In this document: positions 2,498 to 61,441 of the stretch, piece by piece
Position numbering within the stretch: position 1 is the stretch's first letter
Layout of the letters: the number at the start of each line of letters is the position of its first letter
Source of the DNA: Salinispira sp.
GTDB taxonomy: Bacteria > Spirochaetota > Spirochaetia > DSM-27196 > Salinispiraceae
DNA length: 64,000 bases
Reading direction: 5' to 3'
Assembly (NCBI GenBank): GCA_965226555.1
Contig: CBDDDG010000002.1
Coordinates: 64,001-128,000, forward strand
Made by a program: the position numbers and the translations under genes
Notes under the pieces: generated by a model
What the model was told of the DNA's origin: nothing
The model's input: the letters and a program-made list of their open reading frames with translations, nothing else
Database searches by the model: none

Positions 2498-3000
2498 CGA
2501 TAGCTTGCCTATGCGACGGGATCAGGCTAATATCCCAAAATAATAGAAACTTTTTACAAAAATTTCTCATTTTGTCATTCACCATTCATATGTAACCCGT
2601 CTATATGGTATGAGCAAAAAATATATCAACACAGAGCATACCAGCCCCCATTCCCGACTCCCTGAAAAAAATTCACACATTTTGCAAAATTCTTTCAAAA
2701 TACATAGTTAAAAATGACTTTTCTCCCGTTATAGATATAGGAGGAATGTTTATGAAAAAATCATCCCAGAGCACAGGCCATATCCACGACATAGCCTTCA
2801 AGATCGCCTACTACAGAACCCCCCGTATGATTCTCGACCTGCTGCGGCTGTTCTGTGAGGATACAACGCTTTCCAAGATGGACATGGACAAAATCCGCAT
2901 TGAAACCCCCAGCTACATTGCAGGAAAAAAGAACCTTCTCTGCGATCTCGTTGTCAGCGCCCCCTTCCTGTCAGACCCCGAGCGGAAAGCTCTGTTTATT

Positions 3001-3123
3001 ACTGAAAATTTTGCTCCGCAAAATTTTCAAATGAGGATTCTCTCATCTATACTCTTGATTCTCTCACGGTATAGAAAGTTTTGCCTTGGAAAATTGTGCA
3101 AGCACAATTTCCAGTAGCAAAAC
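3001..3123. repeat. Composite palindromic insert 1 (hairpin + spacer + nested hairpin)
   Basis: gaaaattttgc-tcc-gcaaaattttc ... gaaagttttgccttggaaaattgtgc-aa-gcacaatttccagtagcaaaac; near-identical at 6193-6315 and 10513-10635. Confidence 0.85.
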
Positions 3124-3618
3124 TTTTGTATTGAACATAAAAGCTACCAGCACAAACATGCGCTTACTCAAATCGATAACTATCAATATGCCCTCAGAAA
3201 CAGCAATGTGTACAATGAAAATGATGCTATCTATATACTGCTGCTCTACCATGGAAAAAATGAATGGAACCTCCCACTCACATTTTACAGTTCACATGGA
3301 AATGCTGCTTCCGAATCCATGATCGAAGGCACGGTAGATGTCAAGGTGAAAGTGTCGTACATTGTGCGCGATCTGAGGCGAATGACAAAGAAGCAGTTGG
3401 CATGGCGTTCCGATGAAAAACGATATACATCGACTGCATTGTGGTATATAATGCGAGATAATAAAATGGATGCTGAGGGGCTGAAAGAAATTGCGCAGCT
3501 CCTGAACGGTCTGTCTTCACAAGACTTTACTGATCTGGCAGAGAGTGTGCTGGGCTATCTAAAAGATCTGGGACTGTATGAACAGTTTGAGAAAATTAAC
3601 AGGAAACTATATCCTAGA

Positions 3619-3745
3619 CAAAGTTTTGCCACAGGCAAAACTTTCTACAAAATGAGAGAATGCCAAGCGCAACGAGGTCTGCCAAATGTGAAACTTTTGC
3701 TACTGGAAATTGTGCTCTGCACAATTTTCCAATGCAAAAGTTTCA
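3619..3745. repeat. Composite palindromic insert 3 (~127 bp)
   Basis: aaagttttgcc-aca-ggcaaaacttt + ~44-nt spacer + nested hairpin; also at 6926-7052, 11131-11257 and 61048-61174; same architecture as intergenic 52420-52545. Confidence 0.85.
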
Positions 3746-3760
3746 GGAGGAGAAAACAGT

Positions 3761-4084
3761 ATGCGGACATATAATATTACCAACGCCTTCGTCAGGGAAG
3801 GCATTGCGAAGGGCCGGATTGAGGGTCTTGAACAGGGTATGGAGAAAGGTATTCTGAAAGGCCGGGTTGAAGGTCTTGAGCAGGGAATGGAGAAAGGCAT
3901 TCTGAAAGGAATGGAGAGAGGTATTCTGAAAGGCCAACAGGAAGGACTGCGAACAGGTCGTGAAGAAGGCATTCGAGAAACGGCTCGCAGTATGTTTTCC
4001 AAAGGATTTTCAGCCCATGACATTCAGGATGTTACCGGGCTGAGCGATGAGGAAATTCGGACAGTGCGGAACGGATCGCATTAA
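3761..4084 (+). CDS. RpnS-like small C-terminal protein of RpnB1
   Basis: AGGAGG-agaaaacagt-ATG; MRTYNITNAF followed by GxEx repeats, ending VRNGSH. Confidence 0.65.
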   Translation: MRTYNITNAFVREGIAKGRIEGLEQGMEKGILKGRVEGLEQGMEKGILKGMERGILKGQQEGLRTGREEGIRETARSMFSKGFSAHDIQDVTGLSDEEIRTVRNGSH

Positions 4085-4232
4085 TTATCGCCGATCGGCC
4101 TGCTCGCCATGCGTCTGTTGCTGAGACGGGGGCTGGTCGGAGGCTTGCGCATCCTGGGCTGATCGGCGTTGCACGCCTGCTCGCCCAAGCGGCGGGGTTA
4201 GGTCAATATCTCAAAATAATAGAAACTTTTTG
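4085..4232. repeat. GC-rich modular repeat + conserved tail after Rpn genes
   Basis: Modules gcctgctcgccatgcg and gggctggtcggaggc, tail ggtcaatatc.caaaataatagaaacttt; recurs at ~5715-5875, 7392-7600, 10031-10200, 26520-26580 and 54760-54915; GC modules without the tail at 60230-60365. Confidence 0.75.
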
Positions 4233-4613
4233 AAAAACTTTCTCATGTTATCATTCACCGTTCATATGTAACCCGTCTATATGGTATGAGCAAAAAATAT
4301 ATCGGCATGGTACACGCTGGAAATATGTTTTCGGGAATATTCAGATATTCCGGGATTTCATATATTCATACTTCAACAAAGACCTCGCACGGAGCATGGA
4401 GAGCATCAACACAGAGCATACCAGCCCCCATTCCCGACTCCCTGAAAAAAATTCACACATTTTGCAAAATTCTTTCCACATACATAGTCAAGAATGACTT
4501 TTTACCCGTTATAGATGTAGGAGGGGAGAATTCACCATGGCATCACATCGCCATGGGAGCTCCTCCCCTATTCAGAAAAAAACGTTCAGAAAAAAACCTT
4601 CAGGAGAAATTAT

Positions 4614-5714
4614 ATGATCGATTTCAAAGAAAAACCCGCCCCCGTTCCCTACGACCAAGGCTACCGCTCCCTGCTGTTCCAACCCGCAATAATGCTCCAA
4701 TTTCTTCAACGCTTTGTCGGAGGCGCATGGACGAAAAAACTCCGCCGTGAGGATATAACCATCGAAAACGGTACCTTTTTCATCGACCATGCGAAAACAC
4801 GAATGGCCGACATTGTCTGCAAAATCAGGACTCGGGATCACACGGGAGATGTTGCTATCTATGTGCTCCTTGAGCATCAGTCCGGCGTGGACAAAGACAT
4901 GCCCCTCCGCATGTCGGAGTACACAAACCTTCTCTATCGGCACATTCACCGCTCTGGCGCAATTCCCGATGACTGCGAGTTGATATTTCTGCCCATTGTG
5001 TTTTATAATGGTACGAGAAAATGGAAGGTGCCCGGGAATGTCAGAAAGCAACGGAAGCGGAAATTCCCGCAGTATCTTGCTCCTTTTCCCTACGATCTTA
5101 TTAGCGAGAGCGATTATTCTGCGGAGCAGCTGCAGCAGCGGGGAAGAATGTTTGCGGCTGTTATGTACCTTGATCTGTACTCGAAAAATCTGCTGAATAC
5201 GGATTGGGACATTCAGATAGTAGAGAAAGCGATAGCAGAAATGCTGAATGAGGAATCGCTGGAGCTGATAGAGGAATTTATCGGCGTGATAGATTCGATG
5301 TTCGGAATTGTTATAGACTTCGATACGTTAATGAATCAATTAGAAAGAACAAAAGAACCGAGAGGTAAGGAGGTAGCGAAAATGTTCAGAATGAATGCGG
5401 AAACATTCAAAGCGCGCATTGCGGAGATGGGTCGGCAGGAAGGACTACAGACAGGATTGCAAACAGGTCGACAGGAAGGTCGTGAAGAAGGATTGCAGGA
5501 AGGACTTCAGACAGGACTTCAGACAGGTCGGCAGGAAGGACTGCGGACAGGTCGGCAGGAAGGACTACAGACAGGTCGCGCGGAGGGGCATATTGAGGAG
5601 CGGAGAAAAAACGCCCGCAGTATGTTTTTGGAAGGGTTGTCGACCGAGGCTGTTCAGAGAATTACCGGGCTGAGCGATGAGGAAATTCTGACAGTGCGGA
5701 ACGGATCGCATTAA
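4614..5714 (+). CDS. Rpn-family recombination-promoting nuclease/putative transposase subfamily A, copy 1 (366 aa)
   Basis: YDQGYRSLL, MADIVCKI, LLEHQS, MPLRMSEY and PIVFYNG motifs; C-terminal 4-aa GRQE/GLQT repeats; internal AGGAGG + ATG at 5382. Confidence 0.9.
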   Translation: MIDFKEKPAPVPYDQGYRSLLFQPAIMLQFLQRFVGGAWTKKLRREDITIENGTFFIDHAKTRMADIVCKIRTRDHTGDVAIYVLLEHQSGVDKDMPLRMSEYTNLLYRHIHRSGAIPDDCELIFLPIVFYNGTRKWKVPGNVRKQRKRKFPQYLAPFPYDLISESDYSAEQLQQRGRMFAAVMYLDLYSKNLLNTDWDIQIVEKAIAEMLNEESLELIEEFIGVIDSMFGIVIDFDTLMNQLERTKEPRGKEVAKMFRMNAETFKARIAEMGRQEGLQTGLQTGRQEGREEGLQEGLQTGLQTGRQEGLRTGRQEGLQTGRAEGHIEERRKNARSMFLEGLSTEAVQRITGLSDEEILTVRNGSH

Positions 5715-5943
5715 TTATCACCGCTCGGCCTGCTCGCCATGCGTCTGTTGCTGAGACGGGGGCTGGTCGGAGGCTTGCGCATCCTGGGCTGGTCGCGCTT
5801 CAGCGCTACTCGCCCGGGCATCCGGCTCGCCATGCGTCTGGATCAGGTCAATATCCCAAAATAATAGAAACTTTCTGCAAAACTTTCCCATTTTGTCATT
5901 CATATCTCGTTTTTCTCTCGTCACAGATATAGGAGGAATATTT

Positions 5944-7391
5944 ATGAAAAAATCATCCCAGAGCACAGGCCATATCCACGACATAGCCTTCAAGATCGCC
6001 TACTACAGAACCCCCCGTATGATTCCCGACCTGCTACGGCTGTTCTGTGAGGATACAACGCTTTCCAAGATGGACATGGACAAAATCCGCATTGAAACCC
6101 CCAGCTACATTGCAGGAAAAAAGAACCTTCTCTGCGATCTCGTTGTCAGCGCCCCCTTCCTGTCAGACCCCGAGCGGAAAGCTCTGTTTATTACTGAAAA
6201 TTTTGCTCCGCAAAATTTTCAAATGAGGATTCTCTCATCTATACTCTTGATTCTCTTACGGTATAGAAAGTTTTGCCTTGGAAAATTGTGCAAGCACAAT
6301 TTCCAGTAGCAAAACTTTTGTATTGAGCACAAAAGCTACCAGCATAAACATGCTCTCACTCAAATCGATGACTATCAGCATGCCCTCAGAAACAGCAATG
6401 TGTACAATGAAAATGATGCTATCTATATACTTCTGTTCTACCACGGAAAAAAGGAATGGAACCTCCCACTCACATTTTACAGTTCTCATGGAAATGCTGC
6501 TTCCGAATCTATGACTGAAGGCACGGTAGATGTCAGGGCGAGAGTGTCGTACATTGTGCGCGATCTGAGGCGAATGACAAAGGATCAGTTGGCATGGCGC
6601 TCCGATCAGCGCTTCAATGGAAAACGATATACATCAACTGCGTTGTGGTATATTATGAGAGATAATAACAAAGTTTTTCCTAAAGGAAAAACTTTCTATA
6701 CCGTGAGAGAATCAAGAGTATAGATGAGAGAATCCTCATTTGAAAATTGTGCAGAGCACAATTTTCAGTGAAATGAACGCTGAGGGGCTGAAAGAGATTG
6801 CGCGGCTCCTGAACGGTTTGTCATCACAAGACTTTACTGATCTGGCAGAGAGTGTGCTAGGTTACCTGAAGGACTTGGGACTGTATGAACAGTTTGAGAA
6901 AATTGACAGGGAACTGTACCCTAGACAAAGTTTTGCCACAGGCAAAACTTTCTACAAAATGAGAGAATGCCAAGCGCAACGAGGTCTGCCAAATGTGAAA
7001 CTTTTGCTACTGGAAATTGTGCTCTGCACAATTTTCCAATGCAAAAGTTTCAGGAGGAGAAAACAGTATGCGGACATATAACATAACCAACGCCTTCGTC
7101 AGGGAAGGCATTGCGAAGGGCCGGATTGAGGGTCTTGAACAGGGTATGGAGAAAGGTATTCTGAAAGGCCGGGTTGAAGGTCTTGAGCAGGGAATGGAGA
7201 AAGGCATTCTGAAAGGAATGGAGAGAGGTATTCTGAAAGGCCAACAGGAAGGACTGCGAACAGGTCGTGAAGAAGGCATTCGAGAAACGGCTCGCAGTAT
7301 GTTTTCCAAAGGATTTTCAGCCCATGACATTCAGGATGTTACCGGGCTGAGCGATGAGGAAATTCGGACAGTGCGGAACGGATCGCATTAA
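5944..7391 (+). pseudogene. Rpn subfamily B, copy 2, with three palindromic inserts; RpnS-like ORF 7068-7391 intact
   Basis: Paralog of 2752-4084; inserts at 6193-6315, 6669-6771 and 6926-7052. Confidence 0.8.
6669..6771. repeat. Composite palindromic insert 2 (103 bp), an inverted relative of insert 1
   Basis: Present in copies B2 and B4 (60785-60887); empty site gataataaaatg in B1 and B3; its spacer is the reverse complement of the insert-1 spacer. Confidence 0.85.
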
Positions 7392-8536
7392 TTATCGCCG
7401 ATCGGCCTGCTCGCCATGCGTCTGTTGCTGAGACGGGGGCTGGTCGGAGGCTTGCGCATCCTGGGCTGGTCGCGCTTCCGCGCTGCTCGCCATGCAGCCG
7501 GGCTGGTCGGAGGCTTGCACCTCCTGGGCTGATCGGCGTTGCACGCCTGCTCGCCCAAGCGGCGGGGTTAGGTCAATATCTCAAAATAATAGAAACTTTC
7601 TGCAAAACTTTCCCATTTTGTCATTCACCGTTCATATGTAACCCGTCTATATGGTATGAGCAAAAAATATATCGACACAGAGCATACCAGCCCCCCATTC
7701 CCGACTCCCTGAAAAAAATTCACACATTTTGCAAAATTCTTTCCACATACATAGTCAAGAATGACTTTTTACCCGTTATAGATGTAGGAGGGGAGAATTC
7801 ACCATGGCATCACATCGCCATGGGAGCTCACCTATTCAATAAGAAACGTTCAGAAAAAACATTCAGGAGGATTGTATGATCGATTTCAAAGAAAAACCCG
7901 CCCCCGTTCCCTACGACCAAGGATACCGCTCCCTGCTGTTCCAACCCGCAATAATGCTCCAATTTCTTCAACGCTTTGTCGGAGGCGCATGGACGAAAAA
8001 CCTGCGAACCGAGGATATAACCATCGAAAACGGTACCTTTTTCATTGACCATGCGAAAACACGAATGGCCGACATCGTCTGCAAAATCAGAAGTCGGGAT
8101 CATACGGGAGATGTTGCTATCTATGTGCTCCTTGAGCATCAGTCTGGAGTGGACAAAGACATGCCTCTCCGCATGTCGGAGTACACGAATCTGCTCTATC
8201 GGAACATTCACCGCTCCGGCGAAATTCCCGATGACTGCGAGTTGGTATTTCTGCCCATTGTGTTCTATAATGGAACTCGAAAATGGAAGGTGCCAGGGAA
8301 TGTCAGGGAGCAACGGAAGCGGGAATTCCCGCAGTATCTTGCTCCTTTTCCTTATGATCTTATTAACGAGAGCGATTATTCTGCGGAGCAGTTGCAGCAG
8401 CGGGGAAGAATGTTTGCGGCTGTTATGTACCTTGATCTGTACTCGAAAAATCTGCTGAATACGGATTGGGACATTCGGAAGGTAGAGAAAGCGATAGCAG
8501 AAATGCTGAATGAGGAATCGCTGGAGCTGATAAAGG

Positions 8537-9647
8537 GCTGGATTCAACATTTGAAGTGCACCACTTCGGGCCCACTGTGAGATAGTTTAAGCATTCTATC
8601 AAAAGCTTCCTGCGGTGTCAAATAGTTCAGAATTTTTCGCGGTCGATTGTTGAGCGACCGCTGAAACTCCAGTATTTTCCCTGCGTCAATCATATTGAAA
8701 TCGCAGGACTTGGGAAATTGTCGGCGTATGAGACCGTTGGTGTTCTCTACCGTTCCCTTTTCCCAACTGTGATACGGCTGGCAAAAATATACCTGCATAC
8801 CAGTCAGCCGCTCAATGTTCTTATGACGAGCGTTCTCGCTTCCGTTGTCGAGAGTGAGTGTCCTCCGCAGGGCGGGGGGCAATGACCCGAGCAGCGAAAT
8901 GGCATGATGAGCAAAGGTAAATGATGTTCTATCCGCAAGCGGAGCAATGAAGGTCATCCGGGTTGCCCGTTCAACAAATACCGCCACAGCGCTGCGCTGA
9001 CCCTTTCCAATTATACAATCGCCTTCCCAATGTCCTTCCTCGACACGGGCGTCAACCTCTTTTGGGCGCTCGCTAATTCCTTTCTTGCCAACGACATCGG
9101 GGTTCTTCTTACAATAAGCTCTCCGGTCGCAGCGTCTCTTCCGTTTCTTTCTCCGGGTCGGCAGCAGAACGCACCACTGACGATTTTTCGGTCGGTAACA
9201 ATACTGGTAAATGGCTTCATGGCTTATCGATTGACCGGTAATATCAATACCAATGCGCCCTGAGATTTGCTCGGGAGACCAGCTGCATTCCAGCTTTTCA
9301 TGAACATAGTTCAGGACAATATCATTTTTCAGATGCGTATACTGACCTTTGTTTTTCCGACGCTCCCGCGCCTTCCGCTGAGCCTGAATCGCCACATACC
9401 GCCCGTGATCATTCCGGTTACGGTTCAATTCGCGGTAAATGGTCGTATGGCAACACCCAATGGCCCGGGCTATCTCCCTGACGGGATATCCTTTTCGCAG
9501 ATAATAGGCAATATCCTCATCACTTATCCGTATCCAACTGATTATACTGTCTGTGCACCACCTTTTTGTCCTCCTCGTAGTGGTTTTTTCTTATACTCAC
9601 TATATCTCAGAGGGCGGGGAGGTGGTGCACTTATGGTTGAATTCACC
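8537..9647 (-). mobile_element. IS30-family insertion sequence (1111 bp), 3-bp TSD AGG
   Basis: Imperfect terminal IRs gctggattcaac..aagtgcaccac and ggtgaattcaac..aagtgcaccac; AGG at 8534-8536 and 9648-9650. Confidence 0.9.
8544..9558 (-). pseudogene. IS30 transposase, probably frameshifted near the N-terminus
   Basis: WSPEQI, GHWEGD, TLDNGSE and PYHSWEKGTVENTNGLIR motifs. The HTH (EIARAIG..HTTIYREL) is in frame with 9428, but GTG 9558 is 1 nt out of frame and meets TGA TGA. Confidence 0.7.
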
Positions 9648-10263
9648 AGGAATTTGTCGGCGTGGTAGATTCGATGTTCGGAATTGTTATAGACTTTGAC
9701 ACGCTAATGAACCAATTACAAAGAACAAAAGAACCGAGAGGTAAGGAGGTAGCGAAAATGTTCAGAATGAATGCGGAAACATTCAGAGCGCGCATTGCGG
9801 AAATGGGTCGGCAGGAAGGATTGCAGACAGGTCGGCAGGAAGGACTGCAGACAGGACTGCGAACAGGTCGGCAGGAAGGACTACAGGCAGGTCGCGCGGA
9901 GGGGCATATTGAGGAGCGGAGAAAAAACGCCCGCAGTATGTTTTTGGAAGGGTTGTCGACCGAGGCTGTTCAGAGAATTACCGGGCTGAGCGATGAGGAA
10001 ATTCTGACAGTGCGGAACGGATCGCATTAATTATCACCGCTCGGCCTGCTCGCCATGCGTCTGTTGCTGAGACGGGGGCTGGTCGGAGGCGTGCGCCTCC
10101 TGGGCTGGTCGCGCTTCAGCGCTACTCGCCCGGGCATCCGGCTCGCCATGCGGCGGGCTGATCAAACAGTAATATCCCAAAATAATAGAAACTTTTTCAA
10201 AAACTTTCTCATTTTATCATTTATATCTCGTTTTTCTCTCGTCACAGATGTAGGAGGAAGAAT

Positions 10264-11563
10264 ATGAAAAAATCATCCCACAGCACAGGCCACATCCACG
10301 ACATAGCCTTCAAGATCGCCTACTACAGAACCCCCCGTATGATTCCCGATCTGCTGCGGCTGTTCTGTGAGGATACAACACTTGCCAAGCTGGACCTGGG
10401 CAAAATCCGCATTGAAACCCCCAGCTACATTGCAGGAAAAAAGAACCTTCACTGCGATCTCGTTGTCAGCGCCCCCTTCCTGTCAGATCCCGAGCGGAAA
10501 GCTCTATTTATTACTGAAAATTTTGCTCCGCAAAATTTTCAAATGAGGATTCTCTCATCTATACTCTTGATTCTCTCACGGTATAGAAAGTTTTGCCTTG
10601 GAAAATTGTGCAAGCACAATTTCCAGTAGCAAAACTTTTGTATTGAACACAAAAGCTACCTGAATAAACATGCTCTCACACAGATTGATGACTATCAGCA
10701 TGCCCTCAGAAACAGCAATGTGTACAATGAAAATGATGCTATCTATATACTGCTGCTCTACCATGGAAAAAATGAATGGAACCTCCCACTCACATTTTAC
10801 AGTTCACATGGAAATGCTGCTTCCGAATCCCTTACCGAAGGCACAGTGGATGTCAGGGTAAAAGTGTCGTACATTGTGCGCGATCTGGGGCGAATGACAA
10901 AGAATCAATTGGCATGGCGTTTCGATGGAAAACGATATACATCGACTGCGTTGTGGTATATAATGCGAGATAATAAAATGGATGCTGAGGGGCTGAAAGA
11001 AATTGCGCAGCTCCTGAACGGTCTGTCTTCACAAGACTTTACTGATCTGGCAGAGAGTGTGCTGGGCTATCTAAAAGATCTGGGACTGTATGAACAGTTT
11101 GAGAAAATTAACAGGAAACTATATCCTAGACAAAGTTTTGCCACAGGCAAAACTTTCTACAAAATGGGAGAATGCCAAGCGCAACGATGCATGCCAAATT
11201 TGAAACTTTTGCTACTGGAAATTGTGCTCTGCACAATTTTCCAATGCAAAAGTTTCAGGAGGAGAAAACAGTATGCGGACATATAATATTACCAACGCCT
11301 TCGTCAGGGAAGGCATTGCGAAGGGCCGGATTGAGGGTCTTGAACAGGGTATGGAGAAAGGTATTCTGAAAGGAATGGAAAAGGGCATTCTGAAAGGCCG
11401 GGTTGAAGGTCTTGAGCAAGGACAAGCTGAGAACCAGCGTGAGATTGCACTCAGAATGCTCAGGAAGGGTCTGTCGATAGACCTTATTCATGAGTACACC
11501 GAGCTCAGCGGGGATGAAATTCGAGCATTTCAGAAAAACGCCCAAGAAAACGGTAAAAAATAG
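10264..11563 (+). pseudogene. Rpn subfamily B, copy 3, with two inserts; RpnS-like ORF 11273-11563 has a divergent tail
   Basis: Paralog of B1; inserts at 10513-10635 and 11131-11257; tail EIALRMLRKGLSIDLIHEYTELS. Confidence 0.8.
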
Positions 11564-11723: not shown

Positions 11724-11796
11724 GGCGCCGTACCCAAGTGGCTAAGGGAGAGGTCTGCAAAACCTTTATTCGCCGGTTCGATTCCGGCCGGCGCCT
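11724..11796 (+). tRNA. tRNA-Cys (GCA), CCA not encoded
   Basis: ggcgccg...cggcgcc acceptor stem, anticodon loop ctGCAaa, T-loop gttcgattc. Confidence 0.93.
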
Positions 11797-12930: not shown

Positions 12931-12948
12931 GACTTTCTCCTTCGCTGA

Positions 12949-13002
12949 GAAACTTTTGCTACTGAAATTTTGCAGAGCGCAATTTCCATGAGCAAAACTT
13001 TC
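12949..13002. repeat. Nested palindrome (~54 bp) between the divergent NUDIX and ravA genes
   Basis: gaaacttttgct-actgaaattttgc-aga-gcgcaatttccatg-agcaaaactttc. Confidence 0.75.
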
Positions 13003-13022
13003 TGTTATGGTATATTGGAACC

Positions 13023-14600
13023 GTGTCATTATACCAACGAATCGATGTAATAGTAAGAACACTTCGCGCCGACCTCCATGAACGGGATGAGTCCCTACGC
13101 CTCACCATGCTCGCAGCCCTGTCGGCGCAGAGTATCTTCTTTCTCGGACCTCCGGGGGTAGCAAAATCCATGGTCGGCAGGCGAATTGCCGCTGCTTTCA
13201 GAGATGCGCGCTTTTTCGAATATCTCATGGGACGTTTCTCCACACCCGATGAATTGTTCGGACCGGTTTCCATTTCACGGCTCAGAAAAGATGACAGCTA
13301 CACACGGAATACCGAAGGTTTTCTCCCCACAGCCGATATTGTGTTCCTCGATGAAATATGGAAGGCCAGCCCGCCTATTCAGAATAGCCTGCTTTCCATT
13401 CTGAACGAGCGGATATTCAGAAACGGCGATGAGCTGCTGTCGGTTCCCCTGAAATGTTTTATTGGCGCCAGTAATGCGCTGACCCCCCACGATGATACAC
13501 GGGCATTCTGGGATCGTTTTCTCATTCGGGTGCATATGCGTCCCATTGAAAGCGCTGAACAATTTCAGGCCCTTCTTATTTCAGATGAGAAAGATATTCG
13601 CGTTTCCCATCCCATTGCTCATGATGAATGGTCGAACTGGAGAGAAAAAAGCAGCGCAATTGGTCTGAATAGGACGCTGCTGGAAATAATTGTTGACATT
13701 CGGGATGCCCTGAAAGAGCTTGACCATGAACAGTACTATGTTTCAGACCGCCGCTGGAAACAGATTGCTGAGTTGCTGCGCTGCTCGGCATTTTTTCATT
13801 CCCGGCGGGAAGCGGATATTGCAGACAGTTTCATTATTCCGTACTGCATCTGGAACGATCCAGATCATGATGTCCGTACTATTTTTCATGAAAAACTCAG
13901 AATGCGGGTATTTTCGAAATATATCGACCTCGGCGATCTGGAACTCGACATTGCCGCATTCACAAAGGACCTCACCCGAGCAACCCACATTGACGAAGAC
14001 GTATCTCTCCTTGAACCCCGAAAATACGATGGCGAATATCTGCGCTTCCTCCCCAAGCCCGATCCCGCTGTTGCCCCCGCAGCCGATCCCGCCGCTGCCT
14101 CCGATGGGCAGCCCGAACTCGACACAACGGAATACCGGGTCTGGGCAGAGGACCTTGAAAACCTCGATGCGCGATCCGAACTTGAGGTGTTTATGTACCG
14201 GAACGGCACCTTTGTTGAAATGACACTCTGCGCCATGAACTGGTCGAATAGGGAGAAGTGGGAACTTACTGGTTCTCTGGGAACGGGCCGCATTGAATGC
14301 GGGGAAACTGTTGCCAGAAAATCTGTTCCGGTACGCCTTAAAGAGAAGGAACGAAAACACTATGAGGAGACATTCCGCAGCCTTCTACGCAGAATTGAAC
14401 AGCACATTGTCAACTTCGACAGCCATGTTCAGGAATTGTATACGGCCATCAGAACTCATCTTTTTGTTCCTCAGGAGAACAATTCCGTACTTGAGCAGGC
14501 AGCAAAGCATACACGGGGAATTCTTGAGGAAAAACTTGCCGTTCTTCTTCTTGAAGGTAAAAAGCAGGGACTAAAAGCGCGGACTGAGAGCGGGGCCTGA
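13023..14600 (+). CDS. ravA: RavA-like MoxR AAA+ ATPase
   Basis: GPPGVAKS Walker A, FSTPDELFGP, FLDEIWKA, NSLLSILNER. Confidence 0.8.
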   Translation: MSLYQRIDVIVRTLRADLHERDESLRLTMLAALSAQSIFFLGPPGVAKSMVGRRIAAAFRDARFFEYLMGRFSTPDELFGPVSISRLRKDDSYTRNTEGFLPTADIVFLDEIWKASPPIQNSLLSILNERIFRNGDELLSVPLKCFIGASNALTPHDDTRAFWDRFLIRVHMRPIESAEQFQALLISDEKDIRVSHPIAHDEWSNWREKSSAIGLNRTLLEIIVDIRDALKELDHEQYYVSDRRWKQIAELLRCSAFFHSRREADIADSFIIPYCIWNDPDHDVRTIFHEKLRMRVFSKYIDLGDLELDIAAFTKDLTRATHIDEDVSLLEPRKYDGEYLRFLPKPDPAVAPAADPAAASDGQPELDTTEYRVWAEDLENLDARSELEVFMYRNGTFVEMTLCAMNWSNREKWELTGSLGTGRIECGETVARKSVPVRLKEKERKHYEETFRSLLRRIEQHIVNFDSHVQELYTAIRTHLFVPQENNSVLEQAAKHTRGILEEKLAVLLLEGKKQGLKARTESGA

Positions 14601-14603
14601 GCG

Positions 14604-16283
14604 ATGCATCATAATTGCCCCTTTTTTCACGATGAATCTCTTATGCCCGAAGACCTCAGAACGGCACTGGAGGAAGAACTGGAGCTTTTTTTTCTGGGAA
14701 AACGGGGAAGCGCTGGAGAATTGCAACACAACAGGCTGCCGGAAACATATCGCGGAAACAACGAACCGTATTGCGGCAGCAGCGCAGAACAGACGCCATC
14801 GCTTCCATTATCCCGAAACCGCGCCCTGAAAATGATGATCAGCAACATCAGTACACTGGCAGGCTCCGTGCGCCGCTGCACGGAAGGAAACATGGATGTG
14901 AGCAGGCGCATCGCTCACGATCTGGTTCAGCGTGTCGGTAATCTCTTCAACGATTCCAACGAGATACATGCTCTGCAGGCCTTGGAAGGTCTCCGTAAAA
15001 AAATGAGCAGCCGATCTCCTGTGCAATGCTATCATCTGACAAAGAGCATGGGTATAAGCGATTCCGATGGAGACATTATTTTCAGCATGCTTGAGGATGC
15101 CGCCGCTTCCGTTGATATCGCCGACACCGAGGATGCTGCCGCCCCCGACATCTCCCCAATATCAGCAAGACCTCCAACATCAGCAACATCAGCGCACATC
15201 CAACGGCAGTCCCTAGAGCATGCCATGGAACAAAACATCAGCCGCAATCTCAGCGCCTACGAGGCTGGGCTGTATCGATCCATAATACGGAGCAATCTCC
15301 CGCCAATTATCATTGAACTTCTGGAAAATGCCGCTCTGTTGAGTAAGGTTTCGGAAAACATGGAACATTACTTCGGCATAAACTCAGCAGGGTGGGATTA
15401 CACGCGAGGCGAGTGGCAGGAAATTCCCTGGGAAATTTTCAATGCCGGCAGGCAACTACTGGAAAATGATCCATCCATCATGCGTCTTGCTGAAATCCTC
15501 GGAAGGGGGAGCGGCGCAGGGCGGGCAGATACTGTCGAAATGCCCGATCAGAAAGAAACCGAACACATACATGAACAGGAATATCTCGGTAAGCGGGAAA
15601 TACTGGGAATTAATTTCGGGAACGATATTAACATTACCCTCCCGTCGCAATTCATGTTTTTTTTCGACTCAGATACCGAATACCGTTTCTACAAGGAACT
15701 CTTGGAAGGTCAACTTCTCGTTCTTCATTATCGGAATATGGAAACCCGGGAAAAGATCATATATAGGCCGAAAAAACAGAAAAAAACTCTCGGCCCCGTG
15801 ATCATTTGTCTCGATACAAGCGGCAGCATGAGCGGTTGGCCGGAAAGTGTCGCAAAGGCTCTCTGCCTTGCTCTCGTACATATCTGCAGGCGCATGCGGC
15901 GGGGGCTTTATCTTATTTTGTTTTCCACCGAGGTTCGGGAAATGGATTTGAGTAATATGGAAGAGAGTATTGGTGAATTTTCCCAATTCTTTCGCATGGA
16001 ATTTCGGGGCGGCACCGATCTCAGGCCGGCACTCAGGGCATCGTTACGGGTAATGCGGGAAAAAGATTTTGTTGATAGCGATCTTCTTATTATTTCCGAT
16101 TTTCGTGTTCCCAAGATCATGCTGGGAGATGATATTGTGTTTTCTGGAATTCGGGAACACAACCGCATCCACGCCCTTACCATAGGAAAACAGCCGATGG
16201 AAGATATTTTCAATATTTTTGACAGCTGCTGGCATTATCTCGTCTCGGCACAGGGACAGGCCATCGGCATGGGCGGAATTTAA
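14604..16283 (+). CDS. viaA: ViaA-like VWA domain protein
   Basis: GPVIICLDTSGSM MIDAS motif, GGTD, ISDF; directly downstream of ravA. Confidence 0.75.
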   Translation: MHHNCPFFHDESLMPEDLRTALEEELELFFLGKRGSAGELQHNRLPETYRGNNEPYCGSSAEQTPSLPLSRNRALKMMISNISTLAGSVRRCTEGNMDVSRRIAHDLVQRVGNLFNDSNEIHALQALEGLRKKMSSRSPVQCYHLTKSMGISDSDGDIIFSMLEDAAASVDIADTEDAAAPDISPISARPPTSATSAHIQRQSLEHAMEQNISRNLSAYEAGLYRSIIRSNLPPIIIELLENAALLSKVSENMEHYFGINSAGWDYTRGEWQEIPWEIFNAGRQLLENDPSIMRLAEILGRGSGAGRADTVEMPDQKETEHIHEQEYLGKREILGINFGNDINITLPSQFMFFFDSDTEYRFYKELLEGQLLVLHYRNMETREKIIYRPKKQKKTLGPVIICLDTSGSMSGWPESVAKALCLALVHICRRMRRGLYLILFSTEVREMDLSNMEESIGEFSQFFRMEFRGGTDLRPALRASLRVMREKDFVDSDLLIISDFRVPKIMLGDDIVFSGIREHNRIHALTIGKQPMEDIFNIFDSCWHYLVSAQGQAIGMGGI

Positions 16284-18044: not shown

Positions 18045-20329
18045 CTAATACCATGATGGATAATTTGGTTGATCCCCACTATCGTCATTACTAGCCGGAT
18101 TCGCATCCAAACCGGAATCCAAAAACGTATCTGCTTTGCTTCCGGTGTATTGGCCAGCGGCATTGAGCGTCCCGGCAGCAGTCGACCAATGATCCTTCCA
18201 CTCCTCAAGATTTTGACTGAATGCACTTGCAGAATAGAACATAGAGCCCATATTCGTTACCTTACTGACATTCCATCCGGAAATATCGCCATTGAATGCG
18301 ATTGCTCCATTGAACATCCCCAACGTACTAATTACCGAACTGACAACCCAGCCGGAAATATCGCCATTGAATGCGATTGCTCCATTGAACAGGAAGTCCA
18401 TATTCGTTACCTTACTAACATCCCATCTGGAGAGATCCTGATTGAATACAGTTACTCTATCGAACATATTGCTCATATTCGTTACCGAACTGACAACCCA
18501 TCCGGAAATATCGCCATTGAATACATATGCTTGAGAGAACATCCCCGACATAATCGTTACCGAACTGACATCCCATATCGAGATGTCGCCATTGAAATAG
18601 TATTTTAGCGCGAACACCTCGTCCATATCCGTTACTGCCGTGGTAATAATGTAGTTGAGATCGGCAGTATTGCCCCAGGTTGATATCCCCGTATTTACCT
18701 TCAATTTCAGATCGGCAAGAATTTCTGCGGCATCACTACCAGCATCATCGGCATACTTATTATCTTCATCTTGAGGCCTCACGGTAACATAAAACTTTTT
18801 GGTAACCCGTGTATTCTCATCGGTTCCGTCTATGACAGATACATTGTATGTTCCTGCCGTTGTCGTTGCGGTAACCGTAATAACTCCGGTACTTGAGTCA
18901 ACTGTCGGAGGGGTAACCGATGTCCCTGAAGTAACCCCAGCCACAGTAACGCTTGGATTCTCCGCATTGGCAGCGGCGTCATCAATATCAGCCGAAAGAA
19001 TGACGGATGTTGTTGATGTACCAAAGGGAACCCGTGCCGCAAGCGGCAGCAATGTTCTCGTTGCGGATAATGACCAGTCGCCATCGCCCACCGCGTTGAC
19101 GGCGCGCACCTGCACATCGTAGGTGGTACCGTTTGTCAAGCTCGGGATGGTGTAGCTCGTACCACTGATAGGGTTGCCCGGGGCCGCCGTCCAAGTACTT
19201 CCGCTGTCTGAACTATACTGCACATCATACCCGGTAATGGGGCTGCCGCCGTTGTTGGGCGCTGTCCATGACGCGGTGATCTGGGCGTTTCCGGCTGTGA
19301 GCGTGGGAGCATTCGGCGCGCTGGGAACGGTAGCGGGGGTTGCGGTGCTAGTCGCTGGGTTGCCATTGCCCTCTGTATTGACAGCGTAGACCCGCACCTC
19401 GTACTCGGTGCCGTTTGTCAGGTTGGGGATGGGGTGGGTGTAGGTGTGGTTGGGGTCGGCATTCACAGCAATAGAAACAGGATTTCCCCACTCGCCTGCT
19501 CCAACTTCGTGATGTTGCAGTTCATAGCGAATAATAGCGCTGTTGCCAGTATCGGTCGGCGCTGTCCATGTTGCTGTAATTGTCGTATCGTCCGCTACGA
19601 GCGTAAACGCAGTCGGCGCCAAGGAAACGGTAATAGGGGTTGCTTCTGCGCTCGATTCCGACCATTCGCCTGCGCCCGCGCTGTTCCGTGCGCGCGCCTG
19701 TACGGTGTACGCGGTGCCGTTTGTCAGGCCAGTGATGATGGTCTCTGTGGCTGGCGCGTCGGCTGTAGTAATGTCCTCCGACCAGCTGCTCCCGCCGTCA
19801 TCGCTATGGCGAAGTTCATACGCGGTAATGTCGCTGCCGCCGCTTTTTTCCGGCGGAGTCCAGTTAACCGTTAGTTGAGCATTCCCCGCTTCAAGGCTTG
19901 GGGCGTCCATGGTGCCCGGCACGGTTGGTTCAGGTACATCTGAATTCTGCCGGGTATAGGCAGTGCCATCCAATGTTAAGGTATCTCCATCAATGGTATA
20001 CCCTACCGTTGCCCCATTACGGTTTTCCGCTCCTTCGACTCCCATACAATTACTGAGCGTAATTGAGTTTCCGTTATCCGTGTAATCACAGGTCAAACCC
20101 GAAACACGGTCTATGAACGTTGTCGCGGTGAATTCTATGGTATGAAACTCATTATCCGCGGTCCACACGCCTATTAGGGGAGATGTATCCATGTCCATGG
20201 GCACTGGTTCCGGTTTCGGCATTGGTTCCGGTTCCGGCATTGGACATCCGACAAGCAGCGCAATGAACATTGCACATAGGAGGAAGAGGGTTACCCCCCC
20301 CCCCCACTTTTCAATAACGTAGTTCGCAT
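18045..20329 (-). CDS. FN3 + BspA/DUF285 lipoprotein copy 2, frameshifted at a G12 tract in the signal peptide
   Basis: GAGGT RBS + ATG 20329 reads MRTTLLKSGGGG-stop; one extra G gives ...VTLFLLCAMFIALLVGC, continuous with ORF 20270-18045. Confidence 0.85.
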
Positions 20330-27936: not shown

Positions 27937-28009
27937 TCAGTAACCGCAGAAATAATGGCGGACGCCGTCAGATTTTTTCTGAGGAAAAATTACCTTGGAG
28001 GTAACATAT

Positions 28010-29566
28010 ATGAAAATTATGTCATACAGAGGAATAACTCTTTTCACTTTCTGTGCAATGGTTATTGTGTTGATGGCGGGGTGTCCGATGCTAACCGCGC
28101 CGCCTGCCATGTATTCTCCAACTCTCACAGCGGGAAGCGAACAGCTTACCGCATTGTGGGTTGATCCGACTACATGGAATTGGGGGGAAAACAACGCAGG
28201 AAACGCCATTACCGCGTACAACCTGCGCTATGGTGAAGTCGGTAGCGAGGGCTGGACGGAGATTATCTCCGGTATTACCGGCGCAAGCCACACCATTACC
28301 GACCTGACAAACGGCGTCAATTATGCTGTGCAGGTACGCGCCGTCAACGCGCAGGGCACCGGCGGCTGGTCGGCATCTGCCACGGCAACACCTATTGCGC
28401 CAACTGCGCCCCCTGCCCCGCCGGGTACCATGGCTGCCCCAACCCTTTATGCGGGAACTGGGCGGCTCGTTGCGACATGGACTGCGCCAATCGATAACGG
28501 CAGCAGCCCCATTACCGGGTATGAATTGCAATATCGCACAGGCGGCGGAGCATGGACACAAATTACCGAAGGCATCACCGGTACAGACCACAGCATTACG
28601 GGACTGACAAACGGCTCCCCCTACCAAGTACAGGTGAGCGCCGTCAATGCGGTTGGCGATGGCCCATGGTCTCCATTTACAATAGGAAGGCCGCAAAGGA
28701 CACAGACTCCTGTGGGTACGGCAAGGGTTGTAAGCCTTTCAGATGCCGTTAATGTTATTATTGCCAGTGAGAACCTCAGCATTTATTTGACCACGGTAGA
28801 GTCTGGCACGTACGCGGTCGATGAATCGGGAAACATTACGGTAACCCCCGCAACGACGCCCGATGGGGTCACCATTCCGACAGTTAATGCGAATACTGGA
28901 ATTGTTACGGTTACCGCAGGTACAACGGCAGGAACATATCTGGTATATGGTGAAACAGAAAGCGGCGACAAACTCTTTGCCGAATATTTCTATGTTACCG
29001 TGCGTCCTCACGATGGCGATGGTACTGGTGTTACTGATAATGATGGTGATGGCGGTAACGATGAACTGGACGCCGCGGTAGCTACGGGGATAACCACTTG
29101 GGGACAAACTGCCGACCTCAACTACATTGTTACCGCGGCAGTAACGGATATGTCCTTGATGTTCAATAACAACAGCGTATTCAATGGCGATATCTCCGGT
29201 TGGGATGTCAGCTCGGTAACGAATATCTCCGCAATCTTCAGTTTCACAGACGCATTCAATGGCGATATCTCTGCTTGGGATGTCAGTTCGGTAATGAATA
29301 TGTCCCAGGCTTTCCAGCAAGCAAGAGCATTTAATCGTGATATCTCAGCTTGGGAGCCTGCCGCGGTAACGAATATGAACAGGATGTTCAAGGACACAGG
29401 CACATTCAATCAAGATCTTGAGGAATGGAAGGATCATTTGACACTTGATGCCAATGGCAAATTTACCGGAAACAAAACAAATATGTTTAGGGATTCCGGT
29501 TTAGATTCGAATCCGAATACTAATGATGATAGTGGGCCTCAACCGAATTATCCGTCATGGTATTAG
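28010..29566 (+). CDS. FN3 + BspA/DUF285 lipoprotein copy 3 (intact)
   Basis: GGAGG RBS, MKIMSYRG...LMAGC lipobox, two FN3 domains, DUF285 repeats, PSWY end. Confidence 0.9.
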   Translation: MKIMSYRGITLFTFCAMVIVLMAGCPMLTAPPAMYSPTLTAGSEQLTALWVDPTTWNWGENNAGNAITAYNLRYGEVGSEGWTEIISGITGASHTITDLTNGVNYAVQVRAVNAQGTGGWSASATATPIAPTAPPAPPGTMAAPTLYAGTGRLVATWTAPIDNGSSPITGYELQYRTGGGAWTQITEGITGTDHSITGLTNGSPYQVQVSAVNAVGDGPWSPFTIGRPQRTQTPVGTARVVSLSDAVNVIIASENLSIYLTTVESGTYAVDESGNITVTPATTPDGVTIPTVNANTGIVTVTAGTTAGTYLVYGETESGDKLFAEYFYVTVRPHDGDGTGVTDNDGDGGNDELDAAVATGITTWGQTADLNYIVTAAVTDMSLMFNNNSVFNGDISGWDVSSVTNISAIFSFTDAFNGDISAWDVSSVMNMSQAFQQARAFNRDISAWEPAAVTNMNRMFKDTGTFNQDLEEWKDHLTLDANGKFTGNKTNMFRDSGLDSNPNTNDDSGPQPNYPSWY

Positions 29567-54976: not shown

Positions 54977-56517
54977 CTAATACCATGACGGAAAATTTGG
55001 TTGCACCCCATCAGTCATGGTATCCGTATCCACAGCAGCCAGGCCGGAACCCGTAAACATACCGTTTTTGGTTCCAGTGTATTTGCCATTGTCATTGAGC
55101 TTGTTGCCAGTTTCGGGCGTCCAATGTGCTTTCCACTCCTCAAGATCACCGGTAAATGCGCGTGCAAAATAGAACATAGAGCCCATAGTCGTTACCGAAC
55201 TGACATCCCAACCGGAAATGTTGCCATTGAATGCGTTTGCGTTAGAGAACATAAAGCGCATATCCGTTACCGCGCTGACATTCCAACCCGAGATATTGCC
55301 ATTGAATGCGCTTGCGCTATTGAACATATTGGACATATTCGTTACCGTGCTGACATCCCAACTGGAAATGTCGCCATTGAATGCAGTTTTATCCTTGAAC
55401 ATCTCGGACATGTCCGTTACTGCCGTGGTAACAATGTAGTTGAGATTGGCAGTATTGCCCCAAGTATCTATCCCTTCAGTTACCGCTGTTTTCAGTTCAT
55501 CATTATCTTGAGGACTCAGGGTAACAGAGAACTTTTCGGTGGCAAACAGTTCGATTCCTCCGTCTGCGCCCGATACCTCATATGTTCCGGGGCTTGTATG
55601 TGCGGTAACCATAATAATTCCGGTAGTTTCATCAACTGTCGGGAGGGCGACATCTGCGGGTGTCGTTGGGGTGGTGACCGCAGCCAAAGTAACGGTTGGA
55701 TTATTCGCATTGATAATTGCGTCATCAATATCATCCGAAAGAATGACGGATACTGCCGTACCCGCGGGAACCTCTGTCGCAACAGTCGGCAGTATTGCTG
55801 TTGCGGGTTCAGACCATGAACCACCGTAAATGCCGTTGACCGCACGCACCTGCACATCGTAGCTGGCGCCGTTTGTCAGCCCCATAATGGTATCGGTGGT
55901 GGTATCGGCATCAGTTGTCCGCTGAGTAACAGCGGGAGCATCCGTCCAGAGATCAGAGGTCAGCTTATACTCCAGTTCATATCCGGTAATGTCGCTGCCT
56001 TCATTGTATGGAGCTGTCCATTTCACCGTCAGACGACCATTACCGAGTATAACCAGTATTGCAGGAGCGGCAGCAGTTATGACCAGTTCACCTGTTGCGG
56101 ATTCAGACCAGGGGCCATTGCCAATGTCATTGACAGCACGTACCTGTACGCGGTAACTGATTTTTTTGTGTGTTAGTGGGGTTATGGTGTAGCTGGTGTG
56201 TGTTCCGATGTCGGAGATAATTTCCGTCCATGTGGTTCCGCCGTCTGAGCTATGGCGCAGATGATAGGCGGTAATTTCGCCATCGCCGCTTTTTTCCGGC
56301 GGAATCCAGCTAACCGTTAGTTGATCATTCCCCGCTACAAGGGTTGGAGCAGCCATGGTGCCCGGCGTCATTGGTTCCGGTTCCGTCATTGGATCGGGTT
56401 TTGGCGTTGGATCGGGGTCCATGTCCATCACTGGACATCCGGCAAGCAGCGCAATGAACATTGCGCATAATAGGAAGAGGGTTACCCCCCCTTTTTTTTC
56501 AATAACGTAGTTCGCAT
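54977..56517 (-). CDS. FN3 + BspA/DUF285 lipoprotein copy 4, frameshifted at an A8G7 tract in the signal peptide
   Basis: GAGGT + ATG 56517 reads MRTTLLKKKGG-stop; +1 nt (or a -1 ribosomal shift) joins ...VTLFLLCAMFIALLAGC. Confidence 0.85.
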
Positions 56518-60569: not shown

Positions 60570-61441
60570 ATGAAAAAATCATCCCACAGCAAAGGCCATA
60601 TCCACGACATAGCCTTCAAGATCGCCTACTACAGAACCCCCCGTATGATTCTCGACCTGCTACGGCTGTTCTGTGAGGATACAACGCTTGCCAAGCTGGA
60701 TCTGGACAAAAAGCAGTTGATATGGCGTTCCGATGAAAAACGATATACATCAACTGCGTTGTGGTATATAATGCGAGACAATAACAAAGTTTTTCCTAAA
60801 GGAAAAACTTTCTATACCGTGAGAGAATCAAGAGTATAGATGAGAGAATCCTCATTTGAAAATTGTGCAGAGCACAATTTTCAGTGAAATGGATGCTGAG
60901 GGGCTGAAAGAGATTGCGCAGCTCCTGAACGGTTTGTCTTCACAAGACTTTACTGATCTAGCAGAGAGTGTGCTAGGATATATCAAAGATATAGATCCAA
61001 AACTGTATGAACAGTTTGAGAAAATTGACAGGGAACTGTTCCCTAGACAAAGTTTTGCCACAGGCAAAACTTTCTACAAAATGAGAGAATGCCAAGCGCA
61101 ACGAGGCATGCCAAATGTGAAACTTTTGCTACTGGAAATTGTGCTCTGCACAATTTTCCAATGCAAAAGTTTCAGTAGGAGAAAACAGTATGCGGACATA
61201 TAATATTACCAACGCCTTCGTCAGGGAAGGGATTGCGAAGGGCCGGATTGAGGGTCTTGAGCAGGGAATGGAGAAAGGAATGGAGAAAGGAATGGAGAAA
61301 GGAATGGAGAAAGGAATGGAGAGAGGCATTCGAGAAACGGCTCGCAGTATGTTTTCCAAAGGATTTTCAGCCCATGACATTCAGGATGTTACCGGGCTGA
61401 GCGATGAGGAAATGCGGACAGTGCGGAACGGATCGCATTAA
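60570..61441 (+). pseudogene. Rpn subfamily B, copy 4: internal deletion + inserts 2 and 3; RpnS-like ORF 61190-61441 intact
   Basis: LDLDK joined directly to KQLIWRSD (catalytic core deleted); GMEK repeats. Confidence 0.8.

Follow-up and report, generated by a model that had tools for sequence, protein, structure and literature searches.

What does it mean when copies of a gene interrupted by the same palindromic inserts differ from one another mostly at silent positions? The window that we analysed, 64,000 nucleotides of a Salinispira sp. contig, contains four interrupted copies of a gene that we call rpnB (B1 to B4, Table 1). A first-pass annotation had proposed either that the inserts are removed or bypassed, so that a nuclease is made conditionally, or that they spread between diverged paralogs and disarmed it. 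Much of its description of the locus stands: B1 to B3 share an insert one codon 5′ of EHKS that is in frame, holds one TAG and differs by 0-1 nt between copies, and B1 to B4 share a frameshifting insert just before an internal ribosomal binding site (RBS), which in B1 it abuts on the upstream side, although their net sizes are 129 and 130 bp and not the 123 and 127 bp first given. Both inserts are indeed palindromic and fold much better than shuffled sequence (z -4.3 to -6.7). The differences among B1 to B3 are biased toward silent changes, as had been reported, with a pN/pS of 0.231 (0.405 before insert 1, 0.194 after it); the ratio near 1 that had been named as the mark of simple pseudogenes is not seen, as is also expected under conversion. 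Removing the inserts gives a normal Rpn, except that the 'FC' and 'R' of the joined sequence were insert letters, the intact paralogs reading ALFIIEHKSY and LYPEGENSMRTY across the junctions. Overlooked were a third insert of 103 bp in B2 and B4, the deletion in B4, and the membership of the inserts in a large repeat family.

Table 1. Features of the window that bear on the interrupted rpnB copies.
Feature	Position	Strand	Remarks
rpnB copy B1	2752..4084	+	nuclease frame interrupted by two MITEs; PF04754 match on middle piece
MITE + duplicated target in B1	3000..3128	.	129 bp net, site 248, in-frame, one TAG
MITE + duplicated target in B1	3616..3745	.	130 bp net, site 735, frameshift
Predicted RpnS antitoxin ORF of B1	3761..4084	+	107 aa, 4-aa repeats, intact, own RBS
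rpnA copy, intact	4614..5714	+	predicted internal start at 5382
rpnB copy B2	5944..7391	+	three MITEs and a 12-bp in-frame addition (6605-6616)
MITE in B2	6192..6320	.	site 248, 129 bp net
MITE in B2	6666..6768	.	site 581, 103 bp net, frameshift
MITE in B2	6923..7052	.	site 735, 130 bp net
RpnS ORF of B2	7068-7391		intact
rpnA copy split by IS30 element	7876..10030	+	IS30 at 8537-9647, AGG duplicated
rpnB copy B3	10264..11563	+	two MITEs
MITE in B3	10512..10640	.	site 248
MITE in B3	11128..11257	.	site 735
RpnS ORF of B3	11273-11563		intact
Short copy of same MITE	12934..13015	.	NUDIX ORF 5′ end, read as intergenic
rpnB copy B4	60570..61441	+	369-bp deletion
MITEs in B4	60782-60884 and 61045-61174
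RpnS ORF of B4	61190-61441		intact

An intact rpnB paralog matches the YhgA-like nuclease domain PF04754 at 42.6 bits (cut-off 21), while the TIGR01784 score of 36.3 lies under its cut-off of 52.1. Across eight aligned sequences D13, D65, E85 and H86 are invariant and K87 is present in seven; the catalytic role of these D/E/K residues is one that we take from the PD-(D/E)xK motif. Judged from sequence only, an RBS and ATG serve an internal small C-terminal protein with 4-aa repeats, which suggests that rpnB is an Rpn toxin-antitoxin gene with predicted toxin and antitoxin functions; a search by sequence found no solved relative. The family resembles the Rpn genes-within-genes described in PMC10400941 in its PF04754 domain, D/E-x-K residues, internal RBS and ATG, variable 4-aa repeats, tandem arrays and stand-alone small ORFs, and the putative antitoxin role of the RpnS ORF is modelled on that account, whereas single-SNP-scale shuffling and circulating null alleles are features here that the sections of that paper covered do not describe. 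The genome has 140 PF04754 matches, against 0-4 in seven family relatives, and PMC10400941 offers 26 rpn copies as a high example.

The inserts belong to a palindromic MITE family of 553 loci covering 48,854 bp, built of single units (about 29, 42 or 56 bp) and of composites (about 100 or 128 bp). Imperfect 13-bp terminal inverted repeats (TIRs) stand at both sides in 429 of the 553 loci, and among the 337 unique-flank elements drawn from these 429, which have both ends callable, 95 show a 3-bp flank duplication, against 10.1 expected and a maximum of 18 across 200 shuffles; at some sites this target-site duplication (TSD) is imperfect or 2 bp long. The target consensus is CT-NNN-AG (C 0.52, T 0.72, NNN, A, G). 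The elements have the traits of a MITE, being short, non-coding and multicopy, with empty sites (candidates in 62 groups, some of them less than clean). The candidate mobiliser is a resident IS5-family element (NF033581, 228 bits, cut-off 140), whose ends, AGAAACCTTTGCA and AGAAAC(C/T)TTTGAA, resemble the commonest MITE end, AGAAACTTTTGCA, with 12 of 13 end letters matching, and perfect 3-bp TSDs flank seven of the eight IS5 copies having both ends. From this we infer that the MITE may be mobilised in trans by the IS5-family transposase. IS481, IS3-like, IS1182, IS30 and a fifth IS family were rejected as parents, since their ends are unlike those of the MITE. PATEs and REP/RAYT elements, which are mobilised by HUH Y1 transposases, are likewise hairpin-rich, non-coding and abundant but have no TSD; such an identity is contradicted by the 3-bp TSD and by the lack of any PF01797 match, the Y1 transposase, in this 93.5% complete genome. 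A search of 98 further genomes of the order did not find the MITE, and it shows a weak tendency to lie near an RBS (57 of 337, against 47 and 32 at shifted positions).

Known MITEs such as MITEAba12/ISAba12 (PMC6382973) and Nezha and others (PMC3184786) are also short elements with stable stem-loops and no transposase, share TIRs and TSD length with a co-resident IS, have empty and filled sites and disrupt genes. Different here are the modular hairpin units and composites, the 3-bp TSD in CT-NNN-AG, the 553 loci, and the probable origin of most intragenic copies in spread between paralogs and not in separate transpositions. The palindromic elements of Rickettsia are likewise selfish palindromic repeats within ORFs, but they are in frame, open and tolerated in conserved single-copy genes, whereas the MITEs here bring stops or frameshifts and avoid single-copy genes: in a genome that is about 85% coding, none of the 553 loci lies in the body of one, as judged with our own gene caller and by eye for 11 own-ORF and 16 loose candidates.

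Insert-free rpnB copies, whose existence elsewhere in the genome the first-pass annotation had raised as a question, are common. Among 62 near-full copies 33 are free of inserts, 29 of these intact, and the other 29 carry inserts in 14 combinations of five fixed sites, each site with its own element variant; a further 22 of the 84 copies are partial and served only as extra allele donors for private changes. Insert-free copies are in excess (33 of 60 against 24.6 expected, permutation p 1e-4, matched-SNP control 0.005; 20.7 against 15.4 with one copy per cluster), two copies with large deletions being omitted from this test and from the local discordance test below. Since the inserts are absent from single-copy gene bodies and insert-free copies are in excess, the inserts act like null alleles. 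A point on the other side is that further lesions are no more frequent in copies with inserts (4/29) than in those without (4/33). The RpnS ORF remains open (67-117 aa) in 28 of the 29 copies with inserts and in 60 of 62 overall.

These observations bear on post-transcriptional bypass, in which splicing, stop read-through or ribosome hopping would restore the frame. In 14 of 14 full copies insert 1 preserves the frame and holds a single TAG, and the inserts form strong hairpins, as bypass would have it, but three other sites are frameshifts, the fifth insert is 102 or 103 bp, and read-through would add 43 residues a single codon ahead of the catalytic Glu, while avoidance of single-copy genes and clustering on already broken copies also speak against removal or bypass. 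Translational bypass elements (gene 60, byps) have matching take-off and landing codons and a stop right after take-off, and no such combination is present at the three junctions examined. An Rfam search of the window matches only a tRNA, with no intron or structured RNA and no ribozyme core of a self-splicing intron or IStron. RNA-level or ribosomal bypass is unsupported, and we find it scarcely credible.

The silent bias has a simpler source in the intact paralogs. At 50 of the 55 variable sites among B1 to B3, all alleles also occur in intact copies, so the suggestion that the inserts spread by gene conversion gains support while the inference of a conditionally made nuclease is not supported. 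SNP-SNP r2 falls from 0.35 at 1-3 bp to a background of 0.05 at 13-25 bp, insert-SNP r2 is about 0.01-0.05 whatever the distance, and all four presence/absence classes are seen for all 10 pairs of insert sites. In IS families of the same genome, which are younger, r2 is 0.40-0.63 at 51-100 bp, against 0.04-0.05 in rpn. Missing mismatch repair as the cause of this shuffling is ruled out by the presence of MutS and MutL. That some 140 Rpn matches undergo such extreme fine-scale shuffling is unusual in itself. Intact and insert-bearing rpnB have the same pN/pS (0.296 and 0.297), and an irreversible 160-bp rpnA deletion, which loses D and EHQ residues and is present in 8 of 47 rpnA copies, bears the same signature (pN/pS 0.139 against 0.146 in 31 unbroken copies; r2 with flanking SNPs 0.004-0.027). 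Broken copies would thus diverge silently because their flanking codons are overwritten by alleles selected in intact copies. Private changes count against reading the insert-bearing copies simply as dead genes. In insert-bearing rpnB 15 are silent and 13 replacement, a silent share that exceeds the neutral 25% (p 0.001), with 15:17 in intact copies, 3:12 in the four otherwise broken insert-free copies and 2:6 in rpnA deletion copies; this silent-rich ratio needs fast insert turnover or donors outside the assembly. Inside the inserts there are at most 13 private changes in 6,825 bp, too few for a neutral clock. Because 30 relatives yielded no rpnB DNA and the 15 loci from a metagenome scan are all only distant Rpn genes, there is no orthologous outgroup to polarise gain against loss.

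The inserts could instead have spread by recurrent site-specific insertion or homing with drive, filled copies being copied into empty paralog sites by a transposase or by nuclease-induced repair. The absence of linkage between inserts and SNPs at a distance of 4-6 bp (r2 0.014, n=10; 0.16 for SNP pairs) and the occurrence of all five filled sites in 5 or more copies would suit such drive; we nevertheless hold it to be very improbable, since free transposition would not maintain site-specific element variants, SNP alleles and the plain deletion attain similar frequencies, and the insert has no homing endonuclease.

A further rival is precise loss. If hairpins were excised often enough, by slippage between the 3-bp duplications or by a transposase, filled rpnB copies would form a switchable nuclease reserve. 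Two versions of one locus (C13 and C16) differ by five MITEs and are identical over rpnB nt 1-528 except for two inserts, a pattern that precise excision would also produce, and tandem neighbours at C10:500715 and 502489, which are 98.8% identical, are set apart by two inserts. Insert discordance shows no drop with gene similarity, private changes in insert-bearing copies are silent-rich, and the 93.5% complete genome has no SbcD match. On the other hand, inserts are only slightly less linked than SNPs (2/21 against 38/721 discordant with identical 80-bp flanks), the three copies with one site-248 insert variant agree in their left-flank alleles, as is expected of conversion tracts, each window copy would require 2-3 separate excisions, 29 intact copies are already present, and the unremovable rpnA deletion behaves alike. 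Precise gain or loss of inserts at the DNA level does occur; its programming is without support, and we consider a reversible switch rather improbable. DNA contigs of four sequencing runs contain both joined forms (skip 129, skip 130), but empty paralogs predict the same forms, so shared junction sequences, whether in reads or peptides, are uninformative. Single-copy MITE sites comparable between the two-strain duplicates of the assembly are few.

Those duplicates, by which a few rpn copies are alleles, raise the concern that the mosaic pattern is a mixed-strain assembly artefact, the more so as contamination is 6.67% and none of the run contigs examined spans a whole rpnB copy. However, runs from three studies yield contigs with these alternative letters and with each of the two joined forms, a 6,974-bp contig outside this assembly encodes a protein that has the site-735 read-through tail with the gene otherwise open, and tandem clusters have private haplotypes in common; an artefact is therefore most improbable.

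We conclude that MITEs probably disrupted some rpnB copies and then spread among paralogs by sequence exchange, with no need for splicing or bypass. An IS5-family transposase would move the non-autonomous hairpin MITE in trans into CT-NNN-AG, duplicating 3 bp. The MITE would have entered the RpnB family a single time per site, since each of the five sites has its own element variant. Insertions would be purged from single-copy genes and tolerated in one of some 60 redundant rpnB copies. The rpn paralogs probably swap very short tracts continually, as the decay of linkage and a presumed gene conversion suggest, so that each insert would spread or be lost like any allele while flanking codons are overwritten from intact-copy alleles. 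Insert-bearing copies would be null for the long nuclease and, on the E. coli Rpn model, would retain the antitoxin ORF with its internal start. Antigenic variation, in which segmental gene conversion draws on silent copies, is similar in that broken copies here share the allele pool of expressed copies and look selected, but the rpn genes have no single expression site, about half are intact, the predicted product is a cytoplasmic nuclease and pN/pS is below 1. In the literature, as far as it was covered, we found no account of MITEs inserted into rpn genes, nor of rpn paralogs converting one another.

The silent-biased divergence of broken paralogs is thus not evidence of recoding when intact donors exist, for which this genome provides an internal control, and a new spirochaete MITE family gains a likely mobiliser and a target rule. 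This genome also offers a natural setting in which to ask whether Rpn 'recombination-promoting nucleases' make their own genes recombine, and how toxin-to-antitoxin dosage is tuned by a cell with more than a hundred copies. More speculatively, and we think it unlikely, the approximately 110 RpnA/RpnB genes may be a dedicated diversification pool, shuffled at single-codon scale possibly via the Rpn nucleases themselves, with the MITEs as reversible off-alleles that can be precisely stripped to switch a new toxin variant on; an insert would then turn an rpn copy into an orphan antitoxin and sequence donor.

The 2.98-Mb, 26-contig assembly places four rpnB copies (B1-B4), members of an Rpn (PF04754) nuclease subfamily, in the window. 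The first-pass annotation had described an in-frame, single-TAG insert shared by B1-B3 just before the catalytic EHKS and a frameshifting insert common to all four copies; both are present, at slightly larger sizes than the approximately 123 and 127 bp it gave. Among B1-B3 the first insert is 0-1 nt apart and keeps the frame apart from its one TAG, while the remaining inserts shift it. Differences between B1-B3 are, as also claimed, mostly silent (pN/pS 0.231).

Features of the rpnB copies and their surroundings in the window
Feature	Copy	Window position	Basis
Insert 1, 129 bp net, one codon before E-H-K	B1	3000-3128	comparison with intact paralog
Insert 1	B2	6192-6320	comparison with intact paralog
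Insert 1	B3	10512-10640	comparison with intact paralog
130-bp insert, directly 5' of internal RBS	B1-B4		comparison with intact paralog
Third insert, 103 bp	B2, B4		comparison with intact paralog
369-bp deletion	B4		comparison with intact paralog
IS30 element with AGG duplication, interrupting an rpnA copy whose small C-terminal ORF is intact		8537-9647	
tRNA gene adjoining rpn array		11724-11796	
MoxR AAA and vWA gene pair, downstream		13023-16283	
Lipoprotein-like gene		78-2417	FN3 and DUF285 by Pfam
Lipoprotein-like genes		18045-20270, 27995-29566, 54977-56461, 57339-60173	resemblance

The lipoprotein-like genes form large paralog families whose members lie interspersed among the rpn genes.

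The inserts belong to a hairpin repeat family with 553 loci genome-wide (488 with a narrower query) and have the anatomy of a MITE, a short palindromic non-autonomous element, whose general features we take from PMC3184786. With element ends set by a 13-bp motif, a perfect 3-bp target duplication flanks 95 of 337 unique-flank elements, against 10.1 expected from shuffling; 2-bp and 4-bp duplications are at chance level. Targets follow the consensus CT-NNN-AG. The ends of the genome's own IS5-family element (NF033581), which has 3-bp duplications in 7/8 copies, are one letter off the commonest MITE end; no match to MITE-like ends was found in five other resident IS families, nor any Y1 transposase in the genome, and the MITE was not found in the 98 other genomes of the order searched. 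Mobilisation in trans by the IS5-family transposase is therefore probable, by the argument that PMC6382973 applies to MITEAba12 and a co-resident IS. MITEs have also inserted into the transposase genes of two further IS5-like families (contig positions C10:480602, C10:540010, C26:9485 and C21:310733), deletions or rearrangements in rpn genes end within MITE copies at C21:386791, C8:4723 and C26:17059, and one MITE is nested inside another in three copies at site 735. What sets insert copies apart from one another at sites 248, 303, 581 and 735, named by rpnB nucleotide, is flipping of hairpin loops or arms and not point changes, a pattern that suggests template switching or MITE-to-MITE exchange.

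The genome holds 140 PF04754 matches against 0-4 in seven family relatives, these being matches rather than copy numbers. With 22 partial copies set aside, 62 near-full rpnB copies remain, 33 insert-free (29 of them intact) and 29 insert-bearing; the inserts occupy five fixed sites and make up 14 different combinations. The element variant is particular to its site, so that every site goes back to one insertion that spread later, and all four presence/absence classes occur for every pair of sites. The paralogs average 93% identity and are near linkage equilibrium, SNP-SNP r2 being 0.35 for pairs 1-3 bp apart and no more than 0.05 for those 13-25 bp apart, with inserts unlinked to SNPs even 4-6 bp away. 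Linkage decays likewise in rpnA (47 near-full copies, two insertion sites); the genome's IS families differ. At 50 of the 55 sites variable in B1-B3, every allele exists among intact copies. Intact donors and mosaic spread support one alternative of the first-pass annotation, that inserts spread between diverged paralogs and disarm the nuclease, with gene conversion the probable mechanism of exchange. Intact copies elsewhere and a dN/dS near 1 had been named as marks of simple pseudogenes; the former exist, whereas pN/pS is 0.297 in insert-bearing rpnB (0.296 in intact copies).

Some copies are alleles of co-assembled strains, and the mosaic might be an artefact of assembly. Collinear blocks at 97-98% identity that include housekeeping genes (C13:250-14013 vs C16:35879-46465; C1 vs C12; C1 vs C16; C4 vs C10) do represent two strains co-assembled, and their MITE content is unlike at some unique sites. 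However, the same alleles recur in independent sequencing runs and the site-735 insert sits on a different background in another assembly, so that an artefact is unlikely.

The first-pass annotation had also proposed that inserts are removed or bypassed so that the nuclease is conditionally made, a proposal for which support is lacking. In an rpnA control, a 160-bp frameshifting deletion between 5-bp direct repeats takes out the conserved D and EHQ in 8 of 47 rpnA copies, dispersed (e.g. C10:178311, C14:255992, C15:17676) and unlinked to flanks, and can be neither excised nor bypassed; pN/pS is 0.139 in these copies against 0.146 in unbroken ones. Null alleles here therefore spread and look silent-biased without recoding. 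Restoration of the frame at the RNA or ribosome level seems close to negligible in probability, since Rfam found no intron and the anatomy of ribosome hopping is absent at the three junctions examined. A working switch by precise DNA excision is improbable. Several results nevertheless speak against the reading of inserts as spreading null alleles. Of the private changes in insert-bearing rpnB, 15 are silent and 13 are replacements (p 0.001 vs 25%), similar to intact copies (15:17) and dissimilar to four otherwise broken ones (3:12), and other lesions are not enriched in insert-bearing copies (4/29 vs 4/33 insert-free). Two versions of one locus, on C13 and at C16:35879-46465, are identical over rpnB nt 1-528 and yet differ there by two inserts, of five MITE differences in all; SNPs amount to about 2% in the housekeeping genes of the two versions. 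Inserts have thus been gained or lost precisely and fast, which would be expected both of hairpin-stimulated excision and of conversion across flanks that match perfectly. The insert-less junctions sought in DNA reads do occur in contigs from several runs, but empty paralogs account for them.

We found no sign that the inserts are harmless. The MITE avoids single-copy genes: none of the 553 loci lies in the body of one, in a genome that is about 85% coding. Genes with an intact paralog hold 124 loci, 112 of them in the Rpn cluster, a figure that is too high since ORF calls take in leaders; another 11 fall where ORF calls reach too far 5', and 16 loose candidates were judged by eye to lie between genes or in multicopy ones. 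There are more insert-free rpnB copies than expected (33/60 vs 24.6, p 1e-4; 0.005 in the matched-SNP control), as would follow if a further insertion into a dead copy costs nothing and intact copies are kept. SbcD (TIGR00619) has no match in this 93.5% complete genome and matches in 13 of 14 control genomes; its absence may permit the hairpin load.

PMC10400941 shows that the product of an rpn gene is a toxic nuclease and that an internal start yields an antitoxin with variable 4-aa repeats; a small ORF in rpnB appears from its sequence to match that antitoxin. It is open in 28/29 insert-bearing and 32/33 insert-free copies, and insert-bearing copies would have lost the nuclease while retaining the antitoxin. 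A MITE lies just 5' of the predicted antitoxin RBS in three Rpn subfamilies (window 3616-3745, C9:19823 and C2:49992). The reason may be the AG in the CT-NNN-AG target; selection for uncoupled antitoxin might be another. No description of an Rpn expansion on this scale, or of shuffling this fine, was found in the partial literature covered, and how large the family has grown and how finely it is shuffled are what is still unusual.
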